From: Octopus vulgaris
Taxonomy: Eukaryota
Direction: 5' to 3'
DNA: 64,000 nucleotides
Assembly (NCBI GenBank): GCA_951406725.2
Contig: OX597836.1
Span: forward strand, 20,026,001 to 20,090,000
A program made the position numbers and the translations under genes. The notes under the pieces were generated by a model. The model was given only the letters and a program-made list of their open reading frames with translations. It searched no databases and was not told the origin of the DNA. Of this stretch, positions 28,600 through 57,380 are shown one piece after another (the first letter of the stretch is position 1; every line of letters starts with the position of its first letter).

Positions 28600-29320
28600 A
28601 ATCCAATCCACACCTCTACAAATGCGGAAGGTGCTTGGATTGTTAGTCAAAGGAGAAATAATATGAGAGAGAATGTGAGACAACAGCCAAAACATTTTCG
28701 ATTTTATTTTTGCTCAAAGTGATCGATATCTAAGATTGCGCCTACTTTCTGTGAGTGCCAGATTTTCTTGAGATTGGGTTGACGAGGTTCTGCTTGTATC
28801 AAACATCGATGGGTTACTTAGCCAGGATGAGCTCCACAGGCGGCGAGCTGGCAGAAACGTTAGCACGCCGGGCGAAATGCGTAGCCGTATTTCGTCTACC
28901 GTTACGTTCTGAGTTCAAATTCAGCCGAGGTCGACTTTGCCTTTCATCCTTTCGGGGTCGATAAATTAAGTACCAGTTACGCACTGTGGTCGATATAATT
29001 GACTTAATCCGTTTGTCTGCCCTTGTTTGTCCTCTCTGTGTTTAGCCCCTTGTGGGTAGTAAATAAATAGGATGAGCTCCACATCTCCATCGTCCTCAGA
29101 GTCGGAGTGGGGCAAATGAAGTGTCTTTATGGTATGTCCCTGGATTTCAGAGATCTTCAGAGAATGTCCTGTCGAATGAATACAGGCCGCTTTGATCGCC
29201 ACAACGAGATAAAACTAACCATTAAACGAACCCTGTTCAGGGTTATCATGTCTGTGGGATTATCTAGAGACGATGAGAAGAGATCCAACGGATTGGCTCT
29301 TAACCCATATCGGCCGTCAC
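28600..29320 (+). pseudogene. Decayed CRE-clade non-LTR retrotransposon (restriction-like endonuclease region)
   Basis: GAW (about 28630), LHISIVLRVG across the SINE insertion, and GRFDRHNEIKLTIKRTL..VGLSRDDEKRSNGLALNPY resembling the CRE motif GR..RH..N..I.RAL..EP.GL.R.DGKRPDG.T..PW. Confidence 0.6.
28839..29068 (+). mobile_element. SINE family B, full length, 15-bp TSD
   Basis: TSD AGGATGAGCTCCACA at 28824-28838 and 29069-29083. Confidence 0.95.
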
Positions 29321-30668: not shown

Positions 30669-30961
30669 ATGAAAGGCAAAGTCGACCTCGGCGGAATTTG
30701 AACTCAGAACGTAACGGCAGACGAAATACCTATTTCTTTATTACCCACAAGGGGCTACACATAGAGAGGACAAACAAGGACAGACAAACGGATTAAGTCG
30801 ATTATATCGACCCCAGTGCGTAACTGGTACTTATTTAATCGACCCCGAAAGGATGAAAGGCAAAGTCGACCTCGGCGGAATTTGAACTCGCAACGATACG
30901 GCTATCGAAATACGGCTACGCATTTCGCCCGGCGTGCTAACGTTTCTGCCAGCTCGCCGCC
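30669..30961 (-). mobile_element. SINE family B tandem (full copy joined to a head-truncated copy)
   Basis: Junction GACGAAATACC|TATTTCTTTATTACCCACAAGGGG at about 30731. Confidence 0.85.
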
Positions 30962-31709
30962 TTTAAGAACATTAAGCCAGATACTTTGCACTATTCATCC
31001 CGGTTAATATTCATTATTGCTGGAAAACGTCACATTTTCTCTAAAGACAGGTTTATCTCATTCACTCCCGCTTTATTGCTATACAAATAGGTCGCACATA
31101 TAATACACTTCAACCGACAAGAGTTTGTCACCAATCTTAAGTCAGAAATATCAGGGGGTGTTTTTTCTAGGTCGTCTGCAAAAGTAAACGAAAATAGCCT
31201 TGATGTGGAAGATTTATTACTAAAAGAAATTCAACTCAAAATATGAAGATTTCGATATCACAAAATACTAAGACGGCAAGCTGGCAGAAACGTTAGCTGA
31301 CCAAGCAAAATGCTTCGCGGCATTTCGACCGTGTTCATGTTCTGGGTTCAGATGCTACCGTGGTCGACTATTCCTTTCATCTTTTCGGGGTCGATAAATT
31401 AAGTACCAGTTGAGCCCTGGTGGTCGATGTAATCGACTTGCCCCCTCCCTGAAATTGCTAGCCTTGTGCCAAAATATGAAACGAGTATTGCAAAATATTT
31501 TTATGGCAATAGATGGTTAGTTGGTCAGACAAACGATTAACGGCATTTCTTACGACTCTTTATATTCTGAGTTAAATTTCCGTCGGGTTCGACTATGTCT
31601 TTCGCCCTTTCGTGATCGGTAAAATAAGCACAAATACTGGGGGTCGATGTAATCGACTCGGTCCCTTTCCCTCGTACGTAATTGCTGTCTTTGAGTCAAA
31701 ATTTGAAAT

Positions 31710-37619: not shown

Positions 37620-38047
37620 AGAAACATAGTAACAAATGAGTTAAAGTAATCTAAATTAAAACATTTTTTTTTCATGTAAAGTTTCATGTTAATCCATGTT
37701 CCAAGAACCAGCTTAATAATGGCAAAGTTTCTGCAATATAATTCTTTAATATTTTCAAAATGACTTGTAACAAAAATAGTGTATTTCAACACAAGTATGA
37801 TAACAAAAGGGTTAAACATGTAAAAACGGTCAGACTTTGTTCGTTTCGAAGAAAAATTAGAAATAGAACATGATTTAGTCTTAGTCGAAATTTTATAAAA
37901 AGGGATTAATAAATAATTTGTAGACGCTGGCCTGGGTGTGTGGTTAGAAAGTTCACTTCGCAACCATGTGGTTTAGGTTCAATCCCACTCCGCGGAACTC
38001 AAGGCCTACAAAACCCTTGGAGTGGGCTAGATAAATGGAAACTGAGG

Positions 38048-38425
38048 AGACAAACAAGGACAGACAAAGTGATTAAGTCGATTACATCGACCCCAGTGCA
38101 TAACTGGTACTTATTTAATCGACCCCGAAAGGATGAAAGGCAAAGTCGACCCCGGCGGAATATGAACTCAGAACGTAGCGGCAGACGAAATACCTATTTC
38201 TTTACTACCCACAAGGGACTAAACACAGAGGGGACAAACAAGGACAGACAAGCGGATTAAATCGATTATATTGACCCCAGTGCGTAACTGGTACTTATTT
38301 AATCGACCCCGACAGGATGAAAGGCAAAGTCGACCTCGGCGGAATTTGAACTCAGAATGTAACGGCAGACAGAATACCGCTAAGCATTTCGCCCGGCGTG
38401 CTAACGTTTCTGCCAACTCGCCGCC
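38048..38425 (-). mobile_element. SINE family B tandem, same junction as 30669-30961
   Basis: GACGAAATACC|TATTTCTTTACTACCCACAAGGG at about 38195. Confidence 0.88.
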
Positions 38426-38868
38426 TTGGAAACTCTGCATATATTATGTGCGTCCAGAAGGATGAAATGTAAAGGTAACCTCGGCGGGATTTGAATTCAG
38501 AAGCCGGCGTAAAATACCACAAGTTATTTATTCCAGCTCTTTACCTCGTAATTTCTATTCTAAAATATGTACAGGTACAATATCAGGAAACTTTGGTTCC
38601 AGAGCCTTTCCGGATTTCTGATTTTTTCTTTTTCGAACCAGTGGTGAACACACTCTAAATTAAAGACATATTAAATTTACTTAGAAATGCATTAGTGTGA
38701 ATGATACATTAGTATAAATGATATAAGTTTACTATTGTGCTTTGCAAGGTACTAGTGAACTAATCTGGCGGCCACTGGAATCTGGTGATCTCGCTCGTAA
38801 GTTAGCGCGGACCATTAGAGGTTCCGAATCATCAGCGTCAATCAAGTCAATGTTGTATGTGTACTGGT

Positions 38869-44050: not shown

Positions 44051-44354
44051 TTTAAAGATTGAGTCATTTCAAAGTGAAACATAGCAAACTTGATGGCTAG
44101 ACAGCATGACACAACAGATAAACAATCCATTCCATTAGTGAAGTGTTCATCAATGAAAGGTAGTTTACTGGTGTACTAAGTTTACTTAGAAATAGATTTC
44201 ATATTTTACTCTGCTTGTTGTTCCCTTAGCAAAGTATATTTTTCAGGAAATAGTTTTAGGTTCAGTTCAATGTCCTTTTTTTTTCAATCCTAACTATTGA
44301 GAGTTTGGTTTTTTTAATTGTTTTGTTGATTTGATTCTGTTACTCATTAGTATA

Positions 44355-44751
44355 CTCTCTCTTTTACTCTTTTACTTGTTTCAGTCATTTGACTGCGGCC
44401 ATGCTGGAGCACATGCCTTTAATCGAGCAACTCGACCCCGGGACTTATTCTTTTTTGTAAATCCCAGTACTTATTCTATCAGTCTCTTTTGCCAAACCGC
44501 TAAGTAACAGGGACATAAACACACCAGCATCGGTTGTCAAGCAATGCTAGGGGGACAAACACAGACACACAAACACACACACGCATATATATATATATAT
44601 ACATATATACGACGGGCTTCTTTTCAGTTTCCGTCTACCAAATCCACTCACAAGGCTTTGGTCGGCCCGAGGCTATAGTAGAAGACACTTGCCCAAGGTG
44701 CCACGCAGTGGGACTGAACCCGGAACCACGTGGTTGGTAAACAAGCTACTT
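44355..44751 (-). mobile_element. Host SINE family A (B box, body, tail), split from its 5' end by a 4.3-kb insertion
   Basis: Sequence stops at ACAAGCTACTT and resumes at 49085-49115 AGCTACTTACCACACAGCCACTCCTACGCCT. Confidence 0.92.
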
Positions 44752-46787
44752 TATTTTATATAATTTGCCACTAGGGCAGCACACAGAGTAGCTGCGGGCT
44801 GGACAAGGACATTAATGGATGATGGTGGTGGTGGATGACGATGGTGATGGGAGAAGTCAGAAAGCGCCCGCCGACTTTTGCTTCTCTAAAACAATGTTCT
44901 TTTTTTTCAATAGTTTTACAGAGTTCAAAAATTTCAAAAACTTCAAACAATTTCAAAAAATTACAAAATGTTCACATTACATGTTTTAGAGGAGGCAATG
45001 AACCTCCTCTTCCATATGTTACAGGGATGTTACATTGCCTAAGTGACCCGGCCGACCATTGCTCTTGCCTCATTGAGGCAATACTCGCTGGTCAGGCCGG
45101 AGTCCAGTGGTACAGTCTGGAAAGAGTCCGCCGGGCAGGAACTCACGATCCTGTGTAGATCAGCCCTTCCCACGACCCCCGCACTCGGGGCCTTCCACAC
45201 AAGACCGGATTACCTCCCAATGTCCTCTCTTTCGCACTTTTCTTACGGCGTCTTCCACCTTTTTTCCCTTGAAAAAGAGGAGCACAAAATCTTCTACAAA
45301 TAGTCCCTCAGGCAGCACACCCGCCTGAGAGGATCCGGGATATTCGGGAACCGCCGTCTGCGTGTAGCAATCCGCCGGCGGGGCTCCGTTTCTCTTCTTT
45401 TTTCTTTTATTTTGGCCCTGGGCCACGGGAGGCTGAGGTTCCGGAGCTGTGCGCACCAGGTTCTCCCCTCCCGGAGCTTTCGGGTCCTTTGGTGGGTCGC
45501 CATTGCTCCCCACCTTTCTCTTTCTTTTAGAGGAGGATTTTTCCCCCTCCTCACTTTGTTTCTCTCCCTCCACTGGTGGGGCAGGGAGAGGCTCTGATAT
45601 CAGCCGCTCCAGGATCCTACTCTGGTCCCTGGAGCAGTTTTTCTTAATATGGCCGGTCTCCGAGCACAGGTGACACTTGGGGGGGCGTCCCTCTAGCATC
45701 ACCGGATACTTGGAACCGGCCATCTTTAGGAAGTCCGGCAAAACCAGACTCTTGGCCGACTGGGTCCACAGAGTTAAAGTAGCTTTTCCTCCTTCCCAGT
45801 TAGCCGCAGGCTGCATTCTTACGTTCAGGATCTTGGCGCTACCACTACTCAGACCCCGGCGGATGGAATCTTCCACCCACTCGGGCTCAAAGCCGGGCGG
45901 CAGGCCGCAGACCCATAAACGTATCAATTTTTCCCCCTTATAGCTTGGGAGAAACAGAATCTCGTCGCCCTCAATGGGCTTACTTGCGAAATCGCAAGCT
46001 GCTTTAGGAGAGTCAAACAGCAACCAAATCGTTGCGTATTTGGCTCCCCGTTGAATGTGTTTAACGGCTGGCATATAATCTGCCAGCTCGTTCATAATTG
46101 TGTCTTTCGGAAAGACCATTATGGTGTCGAGAGACTTCGAATATGTCCTCAGCACCACTGTCTTTTCCTCAAGTTCGTTCAAATATTTTTTGGGAGGTGT
46201 TAATTCCCACACTGTAAAATTCCTTGCCATAACTTAAGAAAAACAGTTCAAAATGTTACAAAATAAATTAGACACAGAAAGGAGAATGAAAAAAGCAACA
46301 GAAGGGAAGAAATAAAATTAAAATGGCAGTTCAAAGAAAGTTTTTTTTTACAAATGAATGATAGGCAGAGGAAGAGAGTTCAAATTCAGACAAAGGAATT
46401 TTTTCACTTTTTCGGCCAAAAATTGTACTCCAGGCCAAGTATATGGTTGGTACAACACCTTGGTAAATGATCCTTGGTAAATCCGTAGATAACACAACGA
46501 TAATTTCAAAAATAATTTTTGTAGACGGACTACGCCGCCTCAAAAACACAATTTTCTTCACACCCGACAACAGGCAGAAAAACTATATCCGGAGCAAAAT
46601 GGAGCCTTATTATCTGCTAAAAATATTTAATGCTAAAATACATTAATGCAAGTAATAAAGCTTCACTTCGCTCGCAAAAATACAAAATTCCTACCTGCAG
46701 TCGAGTCGAAAGTTCAACAATTCACGTTGAAACAACGTGGCATCCGGAGCAGCAAAATAACACGTCTAACTCAGACGAAGGTTAGCG
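44752..46787 (-). mobile_element. ORF1-only non-autonomous L1/Tx1-like retrotransposon, copy 1
   Basis: Bounded by AGCTACTT repeats; about 550-nt 5' UTR, single zinc-knuckle ORF, short 3' UTR, A-rich tail; no RT or endonuclease. Confidence 0.85.
45039..46230 (-). CDS. L1/Tx1-type ORF1 (gag-like) protein with CCHC zinc knuckle; apparent 1-nt frameshift near the C-terminus
   Basis: CHLCSETGHIKKNC = CX2CX4HX4C, preceded by an RRM-like region; track ORF stops at 45160, but removing one C from the run at 45176-45180 extends it to the TAG at 45039-45041 and restores similarity to copy 2. Confidence 0.85.
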
Positions 46788-46795
46788 AGCTACTT

Positions 46796-49084
46796 TATTT
46801 TATTTAATTTGCCACAAGGGCAGTACACAGATAGCAGCTACGGGCTGGACATAGACATTAATGAATGATGGTGATGAAGTGAAGATGATGATGGGAGAAG
46901 ACGAAAGCGCCCGCCGACCCCGCTTCTCTTAAGACAATGTTCAATGAATACATTTAGTAAAATGTTCAAAAATGTTCAGAATGTTCAAATTACATTTTTT
47001 CAGAGGAGGTAATAAACCTCCTCTTCAACATGTTTAAAAATGTTCAAAATGTTCAAAAAGTGTTTAACAATTCTCCCCGTCAGGTCCCCGAAGCAAATTG
47101 TCTTGCCGCCTGCAGACAACTCTGCGACGACAAGTCGAGGCCTGCAAAGAGAAAAGTAAAATCTTTCCTCTGAAAGGTCTCTGCGACCCTTGTCAAAATA
47201 TCTTCCGTTACTACCTCCGCAGCTACCCGCGGAGGCCATAACGGACTCCTTGAGCCGACCGTGTCCTTGCGTTCTCGGTCACCCAAGCCATTTAAAAACT
47301 TTTCCACCTTCCCTCCCTTGTGGTAAAGGAGGAGAAACAACTCCTCTTCACAGGAAGGGACCTCACACTGATCCGTCAGTAGCACACTTCCCACTGACGG
47401 AGCCCTGTCCGCGGGTGGCACACATCCCACCCGCGGCTCCGTCGGCGACACAGAAACGTCAGACGTCCGACCTCTCCTTTTTCTCCTCCTTCTTTTGGGG
47501 GAGACTGCTAACCCAGGGGACTCCGTCACCAGACACGGGGGAATGCTATTCCTCTCCGCCCCCTGAGCGTTCTTTGGTGGGCAACCGTTGTTGCTTGCCA
47601 GCCTCTTTCTTTTCGTGGAGGCAACCTCCTCCACGACTTCCACCGTCTCCCCCTCCAATGAGGGGACGGCGGGCACCTTTTCCTTTTCATGTTCCGGGGC
47701 GGCACCACGGCCCCCGGGACACTTCTTCTTAATATGTCCGGGCTCCGAGCACCGGTGACACTTGGGGGCGCGTCCCTCTAGCATCACCGGATACTTGGAC
47801 CCGGCCATCTTCAGGAAGTCCGGCAAAACCAGACTCTTGGCCGACTGGGTCCACAGAGTCAAAGTAGCCTTTCCTCCTTCCCAGTTAGCCGCAGGCTGCA
47901 TTTTCACATTCAGGATCTTGGCGCTACCACCGCTCAGACCCCGGCGGATGGAATCTTCCACCCACTCGGGCTCAAAGCCGGGCGGCAGGCCACAGACCCA
48001 TAAACGTAACAATTTTTCCCCCTTGTAACTGGGGAGAAACAGAATCTCATCGCCCTCAATGGGCTGGCTTGCAAATTTGCAAGCTGCTTCAGCGGAGTCA
48101 AATAGCAACCATACCGTTGCGTATTTGACTCCCCGTTGAATATGTTTAACGGCTGGCATATAGTCTGCCAGCTCGTTCACAATGGTGTCTCTTGGAAAAA
48201 CCATTATGGTGTCGAGTGACTTTGAATATGTCCTCAACACCACGGTCTTTTCCTCGAGTTCGTGCAAATATTTTTTGGGAGGTGTTAATTCCCACACAGT
48301 GAAATTCTTTGCCTTTGCCATAACGTAAAATACAACAGTTCAAAATGATAAACTAAAATTAGCCACGGAAAGGAGAATGAAAAAATGCAACAGAAGGGAA
48401 GAAATAAAATTAAAAATGGCAGTTCAAAAAAGTTTTTACAAATAAATAATAGACAGAGAAAGAGAGTTCAATTCAGACAAAGGAATTCAGTTCTTTTTTT
48501 TTTCCACTTCTTCGGCCAAATATTGTAATCCAGGCCAAATGCACTGTTGGTAAAACCCTTGGTAAATAATCCTTGGTAATCCGTGGACAACACAACGACA
48601 ATTTCAACAATAATTTTTTCAGACGGACTATGCCGCTTCAAAATTACAATTTCTTTTCATTCGACACAGGCAGAAAAATTATATCCGGAGCAAAGTGGAG
48701 CCTTATTATTTGCTAAAAAATATTAAATGCTAAAAAACATTCATGCAAGTAATAAAACTTCACTAAACTCGCAAAAACACAAAACGCCTACCCGTAGTCG
48801 ATTCGAACGTTCAACAGTTCACGTTGAAACAACGCGACATCAATACAATTTTCTTTCCACTCGACACAGGCAGAAAAATTATATCTGGAGCAAAGTGGAG
48901 CCCTATTATCTGCTAAAAAATATTAAATGCTAAAAAAACATTAATGCAAGTAATAAAACTTCACTTCGCTTGCAAAAATACAAAATTCCTACCTTTAGTC
49001 GAGTCGAAAGTTCAACAATTCACGTTGGAACAACGTTCATCTGGAGCAGCAAAATAACACGTCCGAACAGTTCAGAGGTTAGCG
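46796..49084 (-). mobile_element. ORF1-only non-autonomous L1/Tx1-like retrotransposon, copy 2
   Basis: Same architecture as copy 1; bounded by AGCTACTT at 46788-46795 and 49085-49092; duplicated unit of about 200 bp in the 5' UTR. Confidence 0.85.
47080..48321 (-). CDS. L1/Tx1-type ORF1 (gag-like) protein with CCHC zinc knuckle, 413 aa, intact
   Basis: CHRCSEPGHIKKKC; first 200 aa differ from copy 1 at about 17 positions; basic NLS-like tracts KRKR and KRRRRKRR. Confidence 0.9.
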   Translation of the reverse strand: MAKAKNFTVWELTPPKKYLHELEEKTVVLRTYSKSLDTIMVFPRDTIVNELADYMPAVKHIQRGVKYATVWLLFDSAEAACKFASQPIEGDEILFLPSYKGEKLLRLWVCGLPPGFEPEWVEDSIRRGLSGGSAKILNVKMQPAANWEGGKATLTLWTQSAKSLVLPDFLKMAGSKYPVMLEGRAPKCHRCSEPGHIKKKCPGGRGAAPEHEKEKVPAVPSLEGETVEVVEEVASTKRKRLASNNGCPPKNAQGAERNSIPPCLVTESPGLAVSPKRRRRKRRGRTSDVSVSPTEPRVGCVPPADRAPSVGSVLLTDQCEVPSCEEELFLLLYHKGGKVEKFLNGLGDRERKDTVGSRSPLWPPRVAAEVVTEDILTRVAETFQRKDFTFLFAGLDLSSQSCLQAARQFASGT

Positions 49085-49115
49085 AGCTACTTACCACACA
49101 GCCACTCCTACGCCT
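49085..49115 (-). mobile_element. 5' end (A box) of the host SINE family A
   Basis: Minus strand AGGCGTAGGAGTGGCTGTGTGGTAAGTAGCT. Confidence 0.9.
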
Positions 49116-49241
49116 ATCTGTCTATCCAACAGTATCTGTCTATCTCACAGAATTTAGTGCTTGTAGGAATAGGCATGTTTATATGGGGCATGCTTTCAAC
49201 AGATCCTGATTAACTCTTCATACTGAAATTTCATTCCCTCC

Positions 49242-50270
49242 TTAACATTGGGGTTTCAAGGATTTCCATTTCAATTTCCTTCCGTTTGGCCTTCCTGAAA
49301 TTCGAGTTGATGTGGAGTGAGTCATGATTGAGGTTATTTGTATATATGTTGCCCTCATTGACGATTGTATAATGCTGTGATCGGAAATAGCTGTGACAAT
49401 GACCTGATCATTGTGAATGAAGTCTGTATTGGTGGTAAAGACTAGGTCAAGTATGTTATTTCCCCTAGTTGGACAGGTAATTATTTGACGCTTGAAGAAA
49501 TCTTTAGTGGTATCGAGAAGAGCATTCATACCTCTCCTGTTCAGTTGTTTAATTCCAGGTTGGATGTAACCTTTAGCCCAGCTGAGACAAGTAAAATTGA
49601 AGTCCTCTGCTCAAAGCACATTGATCTATGAACTGGGCTCATTTGGGTTTTGACTTATTAGCAACAAAGTATCTTTGAAGTGATCTCCACGGTTAGCAGC
49701 ATCAGGAAGACAGAAGGTAATGGCTATGAAGGGCAGTGAGCTGGCAGAATCGTTAGCACACCGGGCAAAATGCTTAGCGGTATTTCTGCCATTAGGTTCT
49801 GAGTTCAAATTCTGCTGAGGTCAACTTTGGCTTTCATCCTTTCGGGGTTGATTAAATAAGTACCAGTTACGTACTGGGGGCGATATAATCAAATTAATCC
49901 GTTTGTCTGTCCTTGTTTGTCCTCTCTGTGTTTAGCCCCTTGTGGGTAGTAAAGAGATAGGTAATGGCTATGAGCAAATTGAGGTCAATCACATGCATTA
50001 TAAGTGTTGGAGTGGGAGAGGACATTTGTTGCCAGGTCTTCTTGGATGAAGGTTGCTATTTCTCCTTATTTCCATATTGTGTAGTCAGTTCTGAGTAGTG
50101 TATAACCTGATATATGTACTTTTGCATCCAATATGTCTGGGATCAGTTATGTTTCACTTAGTGCTACACATATTGTCTTTTCTCAATGTACAAAGTCTCT
50201 AAGATATGATATTTTTGTTTGGTTTGTGCTGTGAAGTTTGAAAGACCTTTTACAGTTGACATTATTATTA
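49242..50270 (-). pseudogene. Decayed CR1/L2-group LINE, APE endonuclease region
   Basis: QIITCPTRGNNILDLVFTT..SDHSII motif; DFNF at about 49600; VALSET at about 50160; stops and frameshifts. Confidence 0.8.
49730..49958 (+). mobile_element. SINE family B, full length, 15-bp TSD
   Basis: TSD AGGTAATGGCTATGA at 49715-49729 and 49959-49973. Confidence 0.93.
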
Positions 50271-56950: not shown

Positions 56951-57380
56951 TAGGCGCAAGAGTGGCTGTGTGGTAAGTAGCTTGTTTACCAACCACATGG
57001 TTCCGAGTTCAGTCCCACTGTGTGGCACCTTGGGCAAGTGTCTTCTACTATAGCCTCGGGCCGACCAAAGCCTTGTGAGTGGATTTGGTAGACGGAAACT
57101 GAAAGAAGCCCGTCGTATATATGTATATATATATATATATATATGCGTGTGTGTGTTTGTGTGTCTGTGTTTGTCCCCTAGCATTGCTTGACAACCGATG
57201 CTGGTGTGTTTATGTCCCCGTTACTTAGCGGTTCGGCAAAAAGAGACCAATAGAATAAGTACTGGGCTTACAAAAGAATAAGTCCTGGAGTCGAGTTGCT
57301 CGATTAAAGGCAGTGCTCCAGCATGGCCGCAGTCAAATGACTGAAACAAGTAAAAGAGTAAAGAGTAAAGAGTAAAAGAG
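56951..57380 (+). mobile_element. SINE family A, full length (GTTTACC head subtype)
   Basis: Complete head, body and (GTAAAGA)n tail. Confidence 0.93.

Follow-up and report, generated by a model that had tools for sequence, protein, structure and literature searches.

A SINE interrupted by two ORF1-only elements

The window analysed here, a 64,000-nt stretch of Octopus vulgaris DNA, holds a SINE interrupted by two head-to-tail elements, all read on the minus strand. The SINE body and tail downstream of the insertion site (44351–44751) are 94% identical to an intact copy at 56975–57374 and the head lies at 49085–49117, which bears out the preliminary description of one SINE split by two insertions. 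Element 1 (44752–46787; 2036 bp, counted between 8-mers) carries an ORF1 of 356 AA (45160–46230), and element 2 (46796–49084; 2289 bp) carries one of 413 AA (47080–48321) together with a tandem duplication of ~190 bp in its 5′ UTR (48645–49035; copies 89% identical). As had been described, the domain search of the window ORFs gave no reverse transcriptase (RT) or endonuclease match in either element, and a single, weak zf-CCHC match was obtained for each ORF1 (E 0.009 and 0.0014, below the Pfam cut-off). Both elements end in a 3′ hairpin that the autonomous LINEs also have (TGCC-N5-GGCA at 44766–44778 in element 1; 46810–46822 in element 2), and AAATA; there is no poly(A), contrary to the A-rich tail reported earlier. 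Close to the hairpin lies a short motif directed against the target, AGCTACT in element 1 (44787–44793; reverse complement of target bases 2–8) and AGCTGCT, with one G-U wobble, in element 2 (46833–46839).

The 8-mer AGCTACTT was found, as expected, at all three junctions (44744, 46788, and 49085), and in four empty SINE copies of the window the same 8-mer is followed by a head of the 49085–49117 type. The 3′ junction (44736–44751) is the original target site, AAGTAGCT + TGTTTACC, and both the middle (46780–46795) and the 5′ junction (49077–49092) read AAGTAGCT + CGCTAACC. The latter two have 16–17 bp in common, from which the downstream junction departs at 3/16 bases. Thus, of the 8-bp junction repeat first proposed, the 8-mer is real and the length is not, as the duplication reaches 15–16 bp. 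Because the same 16–17 bp flank element 2 at both ends, it probably arrived second, landing in the 5′ junction of element 1.

The two elements are 88% identical over the 5′ UTR and N-terminal half of ORF1 and 83% identical over the last 150 nt, with no BLAST alignment in between. Their proteins align over the first ~250 AA only (80%), in line with the high divergence of the C-terminal halves noted before. A repeat search across the whole window was dominated by microsatellites. Joints spanning the inserts, as an empty allele would give, were seen in four presumed-DNA runs; having less than 31 nt per side within a very-high-copy SINE, they cannot be assigned to the window locus. No run known to be RNA was among those listed as carrying the elements. 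Four further runs, guessed to be RNA, contain element-2-like contigs of up to 1702 nt, which we do not count as proof of expression.

The host SINE and the distribution of its insertions

The host SINE is short, dispersed, and present in very high copy number, with exact 25-mers counted 84,762 and 7,660 times. It may be tRNA-derived, as first described: an A-box-like motif lies in the head (49094–49104) and a B-box-like motif in the body (44710–44720). A search of Rfam with an intact copy yielded nothing of tRNA type at E ≤ 10, the only matches being microsatellite-driven ones to miRNA. Genome-wide, 84,762 exact target sites are empty and 693 are filled, with reversed-pattern controls giving 0. 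The target, AAG(T/A)AGCT, exists in an old (A) and a young (T) SINE variant; the A variant is the older by both the elements (93% vs. 97.5% for T) and the SINEs (82% vs. 92%).

Insertion is site-specific, as the preliminary description had supposed. All of the 30 top ORF1 matches lie at the SINE site, and 12/12 lower-ranked ones start at the SINE head. In a tail search blind to the target, 96 of the first 100 matches listed (of 237; counted by eye) adjoin a SINE body or another element. The flanks are not random. We thus have a single target sequence accompanied by a target duplication, as in the target-specific Tx1 families. Fifty unselected filled sites comprised 26 ORF1-only and 10 ORF2-bearing elements, 8 tails of ORF1-only type, 2 of autonomous type, and 4 without assignment; two of the 50 were stacks. 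The largest stack has 16 units and mixes distant families.

Private variants shared by both ends of L003/L082, L102, and L164 point to a long target duplication. Among 52 full-length single insertions, positions 9–15 agree at both ends in 25 (10.7 expected), a concordance that may partly reflect shared age. In the other 27 the ends differ at these positions, often by recurrent 5′ variants absent from SINE bodies, and the 5′ junction is therefore not a plain duplication.

A separate, selected ORF1 lineage and its putative helpers

A model of the ORF1 of element 1 (pLDDT 87), which comprises two RRM-fold domains, a CCHC knuckle, and a variable C-terminal half, matched tandem RRMs in a fold search, the best VIA Z (8.5) belonging to a La RRM with an rmsd of 2.8 over 82 aligned residues. 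No L1 ORF1p chain was among the fold matches listed, and a sequence search of the PDB returned knuckle matches only (E ≥ 0.098); from the model we claim no more than an RRM fold. L1 ORF1 consists of a coiled coil, an RRM, and a CTD, and so differs in architecture from the octopus protein. Named ORF1 homologues are octopod.

In a quick IQ-TREE tree, built from 51 of 134 units having their N-domain intact, the 36 ORF1s of ORF1-only elements form their own clade (SH-aLRT 100). They are about 26–30% identical to the ORF1 of LINEs at the same site, and the units fall into 24 clusters. Values of dN/dS were 0.09–0.32 in 28/28 pairs (0.17 for the window pair), by which measure these ORF1s are under purifying selection.

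The autonomous relatives that had been predicted do exist: two-ORF LINEs of the L1/Tx1 group use the same SINE site. Their 1133-AA ORF2 contains Exo_endo_phos (PF03372), RVT_1 (PF00078), and zf-RVT (PF13966) domains, and their ORF1 has a zf-CCHC and aligns with the window ORF1, so that both the APE endonuclease–RT–zinc-binding ORF2 and the RRM + CCHC ORF1 of the group are present. The best solved relative of ORF2 is human L1 ORF2p (E 8e-66, vs. only 1e-21 for R2); no named Tx1 reference was among the 120 matches listed in the RT search. Young copies are 98.6–99.7% identical. Of the copies fetched, 13/15 with endonuclease identity of at least 77% start at the SINE head, vs. 0/5 at 68% or below. 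As they share the target site and the last ~40 nt with the ORF1-only elements, these LINEs are likely the helpers, whose ORF2p would mobilise the ORF1-only elements in trans. The 3′ UTRs are otherwise unrelated, and the 5′ UTRs of ORF1-only elements are partly similar to that of one ORF2-bearing unit, L100-2877.

A 3′ motif that covaries with the target

Among 31 distinct tails, the four positions of the hairpin stem are paired in 29, 26, 26, and 29, respectively, the compensatory variants being C-G, T-A, and G-C. The preliminary description included neither the longer duplication nor an anti-target motif; the latter, a 7–10-nt reverse complement of the target, is carried in the 3′ UTR of the ORF1-only and autonomous lineages alike. 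A complement of at least 7 nt occurs in 116/192 junctions, against ~3 for shuffled sequence and 2 for an upstream control, and in 0/30 ends of relaxed-target sister LINEs, whose targets have just AAGAAA in common.

The motif follows the SINE variant: 30 junctions combine motif T with target A and 108 combine motif A with target T, leaving 4 discordant (138/142 called junctions agree; the motif base was uncalled in 59/204). The predicted AGCTTCTT is present in L176, an ORF2-bearing copy at the old SINE variant. As the copies are related, the Fisher P for this association (3e-26) overstates independence; about four sub-lineages show both motif states, and the ORF1-only/autonomous pair alone is surely independent. 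A-variant SINEs also house a family whose motif is of the T type (14 of 100 listed vs. 38 matched, counted by eye), which contributes 3 cases to the junction count, and at 7/30 loci tails of another type, lacking the motif, still occupy the SINE site. Since mismatched and motif-less families are found there, the motif is not required for use of the site; it may aid the aiming of insertion.

Discussion

HeT-A of Drosophila attaches to chromosome ends and belongs to another clade, whereas the octopus elements occupy internal positions, numbering in the hundreds and bearing target duplications. The likeness is in a Gag-only element forming head-to-tail arrays with pol-bearing partners, as outlined in PMC5537684. 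Closer in organisation is Dictyostelium TRE5-A.2 (PMC5391098), portrayed in the sections consulted as ORF1-only, forming tandems, and served in trans by an APE-RT partner, as we infer for octopus. The combination of ORF1-only content, site specificity, and tandem arrangement thus has a precedent, one that the preliminary description overlooked. TRE5-A.2 is given there as position-specific at Pol III genes; in octopus insertion is at a fixed sequence inside a SINE, and the ORF1-only elements, now split into many families, have no more than ~26% identity to their helper. Tx1-Mar/SINEU of crocodilians and Tx1/Tx1D of Xenopus (PMC4494074) are reported as cases in which one target, within another dispersed transposon, serves both a Tx1 LINE and its non-autonomous partner, and there, too, tandem insertions sandwich the target duplication. 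As that source presents Tx1-Mar/SINEU, the target is a DNA transposon, the partner a non-coding SINE, and the preference 13–90%; the octopus elements insert into a SINE head with near-complete specificity and build stacks of up to 16 units, and the non-autonomous partner codes for ORF1. HAL1 (half-L1) is likewise an ORF1-only non-autonomous LINE derivative and arose several times (PMC5753468); a fixed target or stacking is not part of that account where we drew on it. Having ORF1 alone, no ORF2 remnant, and a selected ORF1, but no poly(A) and octopod homologues where HAL1 is mammalian-L1-derived and poly(A)-tailed, our elements function like HAL1 and are not HAL1.

In SART1Bm and R1Bm (PMC7265360, relevant parts), a short RNA in or beyond the 3′ UTR pairs with the target during priming; these sequences are target-sense, and their pairing partner is the nicked bottom strand. 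The octopus motif, of opposite polarity, corresponds to the bottom strand; its potential partners are the top strand and read-through RNA. The literature searched, which extended neither to subscription papers nor to Repbase reports or the Zenodo library of PMC13282606, held no SINE-targeting LINE or anti-target motif, and a recent octopus repeat annotation, in the portion used, lists 13 recently active L1-Tx1 families with neither a target nor an ORF1-only family described. TRE5-A.2, Tx1-Mar/SINEU, and HAL1 cover separate parts of what is seen here; the anti-target motif in both lineages is new here.

With site specificity, stacks, helper families, a separate ORF1 clade under purifying selection, a shared hairpin, duplications of up to 15–16 bp, and a covarying motif established, we consider it highly probable that an old, diversified ORF1-only lineage occupies a fixed SINE-head site and is copied by the endonuclease-RT of a same-site L1/Tx1-group LINE. 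Helper ORF2p would bind the RNA via the common last ~40 nt, and its endonuclease would make a bottom-strand nick at AAG(T/A)AGCT, a narrower version of AAGAAA, the core used by the sister LINEs. The transcript would read on into the duplicated target, whose RNA copy could prime reverse transcription, and the internal motif would pair with this copy, thereby enclosing the hairpin in a stem, or else with the top strand of the DNA once displaced. The target would be duplicated through a second nick, at a distance of up to ~15–16 nt; each junction would thereby become a new landing site, allowing stacks to grow. Retention of ORF1 by each element would serve the packaging of that element's RNA.

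Two versions of the pairing step differ in whether the motif contacts DNA. The endonuclease alone may set the target, with the motif merely folding with read-through RNA, in 3′ processing or ORF2p binding, and never contacting DNA; to this version, which can stand beside the main explanation and departs from it just at the pairing step, we give an even chance. In predicted folds of read-through RNA from element 2 and autonomous family A the motif does pair with the downstream target copy, mismatched and motif-less families reach the SINE site anyway, and Kojima 2015 (PMC4494074) holds the endonuclease mainly responsible for target choice. Yet this version leaves unexplained why a stem that would hide the priming sequence is retained, and the motif stem is absent from the minimum-energy fold of element 1 read-through RNA. 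A bolder and rather doubtful possibility is an RNA-assisted APE LINE, in which the read-through stem swaps strands with the nicked SINE duplex, one arm priming on the bottom strand and the other gripping the top strand.

The stacks themselves could mostly be copies of multi-unit read-through transcripts or local tandem duplications, not independent hits. Homogeneous arrays exist (e.g., seven consecutive tails at G000:C1:223.69-223.71 Mb, with units 98.7–99.7% alike), a contig from a run merely guessed to be RNA (X3 record 27) spans the element 2/element 1 junction, and stacks make up ~27 of ~85 loci whose tails are of the window-like type (by eye), where 693/85,455 filled sites would lead one to expect a few percent at most. 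We regard this as unlikely, given that units are as similar between arrays as within them (up to 99.5%), that the window pair and the 16-unit stack combine distant families, and that junction variants are stack-specific across unrelated families, as expected if local targets duplicate. It is very improbable that the ORF1-only elements are internal deletions of present autonomous families: the shared target and last ~40 nt and the 5′ UTR similarity to L100-2877 are outweighed by the low ORF1 identity and separate clades, the unrelated 3′ UTRs, the diversification of 24 clusters under purifying selection, and an ORF2 remnant in 0/89 full-length units, which also speaks against simple deletion of ORF2-carrying copies as raised in the preliminary description. 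The ORF1-only elements likely go back to an ancient deletion in a family now lost. ZCCHC3-like clusters do appear among atlas look-alikes (0.90–0.91), but a domesticated host gene pair, single-copy and syntenic, is practically inconceivable with at least 150 scored ORF1 matches that are dispersed, many broken, and flanked by duplicated targets; the same holds for an assembly artefact, element-like contigs being found in 4/4 presumed-DNA runs under two organism labels. Copy number and flanks rule out both.

Under the preferred reading, a diversified ORF1-only lineage served by a same-site LINE, the system amounts to parasitism in three layers: some 85,000 or more SINE landing pads, likely harmless, a young LINE, and at least two dozen ORF1-only families riding on it. 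The stacks likely record the history of insertion at one base, and the ORF1-only lineage offers a test of why non-autonomous elements retain ORF1. The covarying motif allows a cheap and exact test of whether RNA helps an APE endonuclease to select its target or stay on it, a question of relevance to site-specific retrotransposons as insertion tools. If the strand-swap reading were true, the LINE and its ORF1-only parasites would have rewritten a mini-guide after a one-base change in the SINE, and would together form an insertion system that is programmable in part and keeps chasing that SINE.

Anatomy of the element pair

The two minus-strand elements (element 1, 44752-46787; element 2, 46796-49084) lie head-to-tail within one SINE head. 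The preliminary description, a SINE split by two elements with a target copy at three junctions, was confirmed by AGCTACTT at 44744, 46788 and 49085. The SINE body on one side of the pair matches an intact copy at 56975-57374 at 94%, and the SINE head lies on the other side. Identity between the elements is 88% over the 5′ half and 83% over the final 150 nt; the part between cannot be aligned. Each has one minus-strand ORF (356 and 413 AA) with only a weak zinc-knuckle profile match. Modelled with AlphaFold on a 36-row alignment, the N-terminal 205 AA of ORF1 reached a pLDDT of 87, and a fold search with this model returned tandem RRM proteins. Given this resemblance, ORF1 comprises two RRMs and a CCHC knuckle, with a variable tail. 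The named homologues are from octopods, namely Octopus sinensis, O. vulgaris, O. bimaculoides and Argonauta.

Adjoining the SINE head, a 95-AA minus-strand ORF (49242-49529; weak PF14529 endonuclease-RT match, E 0.003) is an unrelated, decayed LINE fragment. Copies of a second abundant SINE-like family lie in both orientations in the window (28829-29071, 30669-30963, 38041-38435, 49785-49963 and others).

Target site and junctions

A protein search of the genome gave 150 scored matches among 11,750 candidates. In 30/30 of the top loci (the best 30 of 150, including the two in the window) the target 8-mer was present at both ends, as the proposed site specificity predicts, and all were bounded by a SINE or another element; 12/12 lower-ranked ORF1 loci (66-80% identity) begin at a SINE head. 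The tail alone gave 237 matches; among the 100 listed, classed by eye, a SINE body followed in 57, the start of another element in 36 and a truncated element in 3, with 4 unassigned. Genome-wide, there are 693 exact filled 3′ junctions and 84,762 empty sites; for AAGAAGCT, an older variant of the site, the counts are 135 filled and 7,660 empty.

The supposed 8-mer target copy is present at all three junctions in the window, but the duplication extends beyond 8 bp: L003/L082, L102 and L164 carry private variants at both of their ends. Bases 9-15 agree between ends in 25/52 full-length single insertions vs. 10.7 by permutation. The other 27 show mismatches there, often recurrent 5′ variants, none of which was seen in SINE bodies. 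Transcripts would start inside the upstream duplication of the donor, and the 5′ join would be a mixture of RNA-derived and target-derived bases. Each junction remains a target.

Stacks and arrays

Since its two ends carry identical 16-17 bp, element 2 was likely inserted after element 1. The largest stack, extending from one SINE head over 42 kb, contains 16 tail junctions (G000:C7:13456204-13498275; L154, L153, L100, L152, L099, L151). Runs of one junction variant span unrelated families in it, same-strand ORF2 fragments (55-66%) of sister LINEs, the relaxed-target relatives of the likely helper, flank it on both sides, and no closing SINE body was seen. In form it is similar to a one-strand transposon cluster, and as a guess it might be piRNA-cluster-like.

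Counted by eye, about 27 of about 85 loci with the window-like tail type are stacks, well above chance; of unselected filled sites, only 2/50 are. This excess could come from a preference for occupied sites or from multi-unit copying; array units are equally alike between arrays and within them. Homogeneous arrays of one ORF1-only family were also seen (G000:C1:223694739-223706793, covering L091 and L092; L085; L110). Their units are 98-99.7% alike, whether compared inside one array or across arrays, and the junction variant differs from array to array.

Probable helper LINE and the ORF1-only lineage

The autonomous relatives with APE-RT that had been expected were found at the same SINE site: in a genome-order sample of 50 filled sites, 10 were ORF2-bearing, 26 ORF1-only, 10 typed by tail alone and 4 unassigned. 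The ORF2 of this likely helper (1133 AA) contains endonuclease, RT and zf-RVT domains, its nearest solved structure being human L1 ORF2p; the helper likely belongs to Tx1 rather than L1. Nine copies of helper family A are mutually 98.6-99.7% identical, and many endonuclease matches have full-length open frames. Three full-length autonomous family A copies are stacked within one SINE at G000:C9:2660000-2690000 (L156-L158). Of 20 copies sampled over the range of identities, 13/15 at ≥77% and 0/5 at ≤68% started at a SINE head. The flanks of sister-group 3′ ends (n = 30) were diverse, sharing no more than an AAGAAA core; a narrowing of the target is therefore the likely origin of SINE specificity. 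At L206-L214 sister copies are repeatedly followed by the same two sequences, so part of this family may target another repeat.

Segmentation of L001-L150 gave 134 units, 89 of them full-length ORF1-only (median 2049 bp, 24 clusters). None of the 89 has an ORF2 trace. In a quick N-domain tree of 50 intact sequences, 36 ORF1-only proteins group in a single clade (SH-aLRT 100); their identity to helper ORF1 is about 26-30%, and dN/dS was 0.09-0.32 in 28/28 pairs. The missing ORF2 trace, the separate clade and these dN/dS values make simple deletion from helpers very unlikely as their origin. Except that one ORF2-bearing unit is somewhat similar in the 5′ UTR, these units and the helpers have only the extreme 3′ end in common: a hairpin, TGCC-N5-GGCA, with compensatory variants, then AAATA. 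The A-rich tail reported earlier thus proved to be this end, without poly(A).

Shorter units of ~1.4-1.5 kb carry a different ORF1 and tail, which suggests a second ORF1-only origin at the site. Units of this size where measured, or with weak ORF1 (L104, unit at 2964; L152, L151, L184, L192, L193, L198, L199), have a differing tail without the anti-target motif and are possibly that second lineage. Among L015, L019, L021, L022, L023 and L026, one ORF1 family has differing 5′ ends and one 5′ end occurs across ORF1 families, so that 5′ end swapping appears frequent; their ORF1 C-halves are mosaic.

Anti-target motif

In both lineages, whose UTRs are otherwise unrelated, the target sequence recurs in reverse-complemented form ~40-80 nt upstream of the 3′ end. 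A complementary run of at least 7 nt was present at 116/192 junctions, a set including some false junctions; the corresponding counts were about 3 for shuffles and 2 for an upstream control stretch. Across 204 junctions, counts drawn from related, non-independent copies, the motif has T with the A-variant target in 30 and A with the T-variant in 108, whereas 4 were discordant, 3 lay at G-variant sites, and in 59 no base was called. The prediction that a helper at the A-variant site reads AGCTTCTT held for L176; a second helper copy at such a site is decayed at the motif position. A-variant elements and SINEs are older than T-variant ones, so the site and the motif probably changed in concert. 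On the other side, a family that has the young motif occupies old-variant sites (14 vs. 38 matched among 100 listed, by eye), and tails at 7/30 loci lack the motif. The motif itself is real and linked to the target. In folds of read-through RNA it paired with the target copy in element 2 and helper A, and not in element 1. Its partner may be RNA only, or the DNA top strand; RNA-assisted DNA targeting we consider rather unlikely.

Comparison with known systems

Tx1-Mar and SINEU insert into a Mariner element, and their stacks share a duplication (PMC4494074). The ORF1-only TRE5-A.2 is mobilised in trans, inserts position-specifically and occurs in tandems (PMC5391098). HAL1 (PMC5753468) and HeT-A (PMC5537684) are also ORF1-only. 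SART1 and R1 prime with target-sense RNA (PMC7265360), whereas the octopus motif has the opposite polarity. In PMC13282606 only L1-Tx1 counts were found, and a term search of PMC8869645 returned no mention of SINEs. A search of the literature at title and abstract level showed no SINE-head target or opposite-polarity motif. The system is very probably a real, new variant of target-specific retrotransposition in the L1/Tx1 group.
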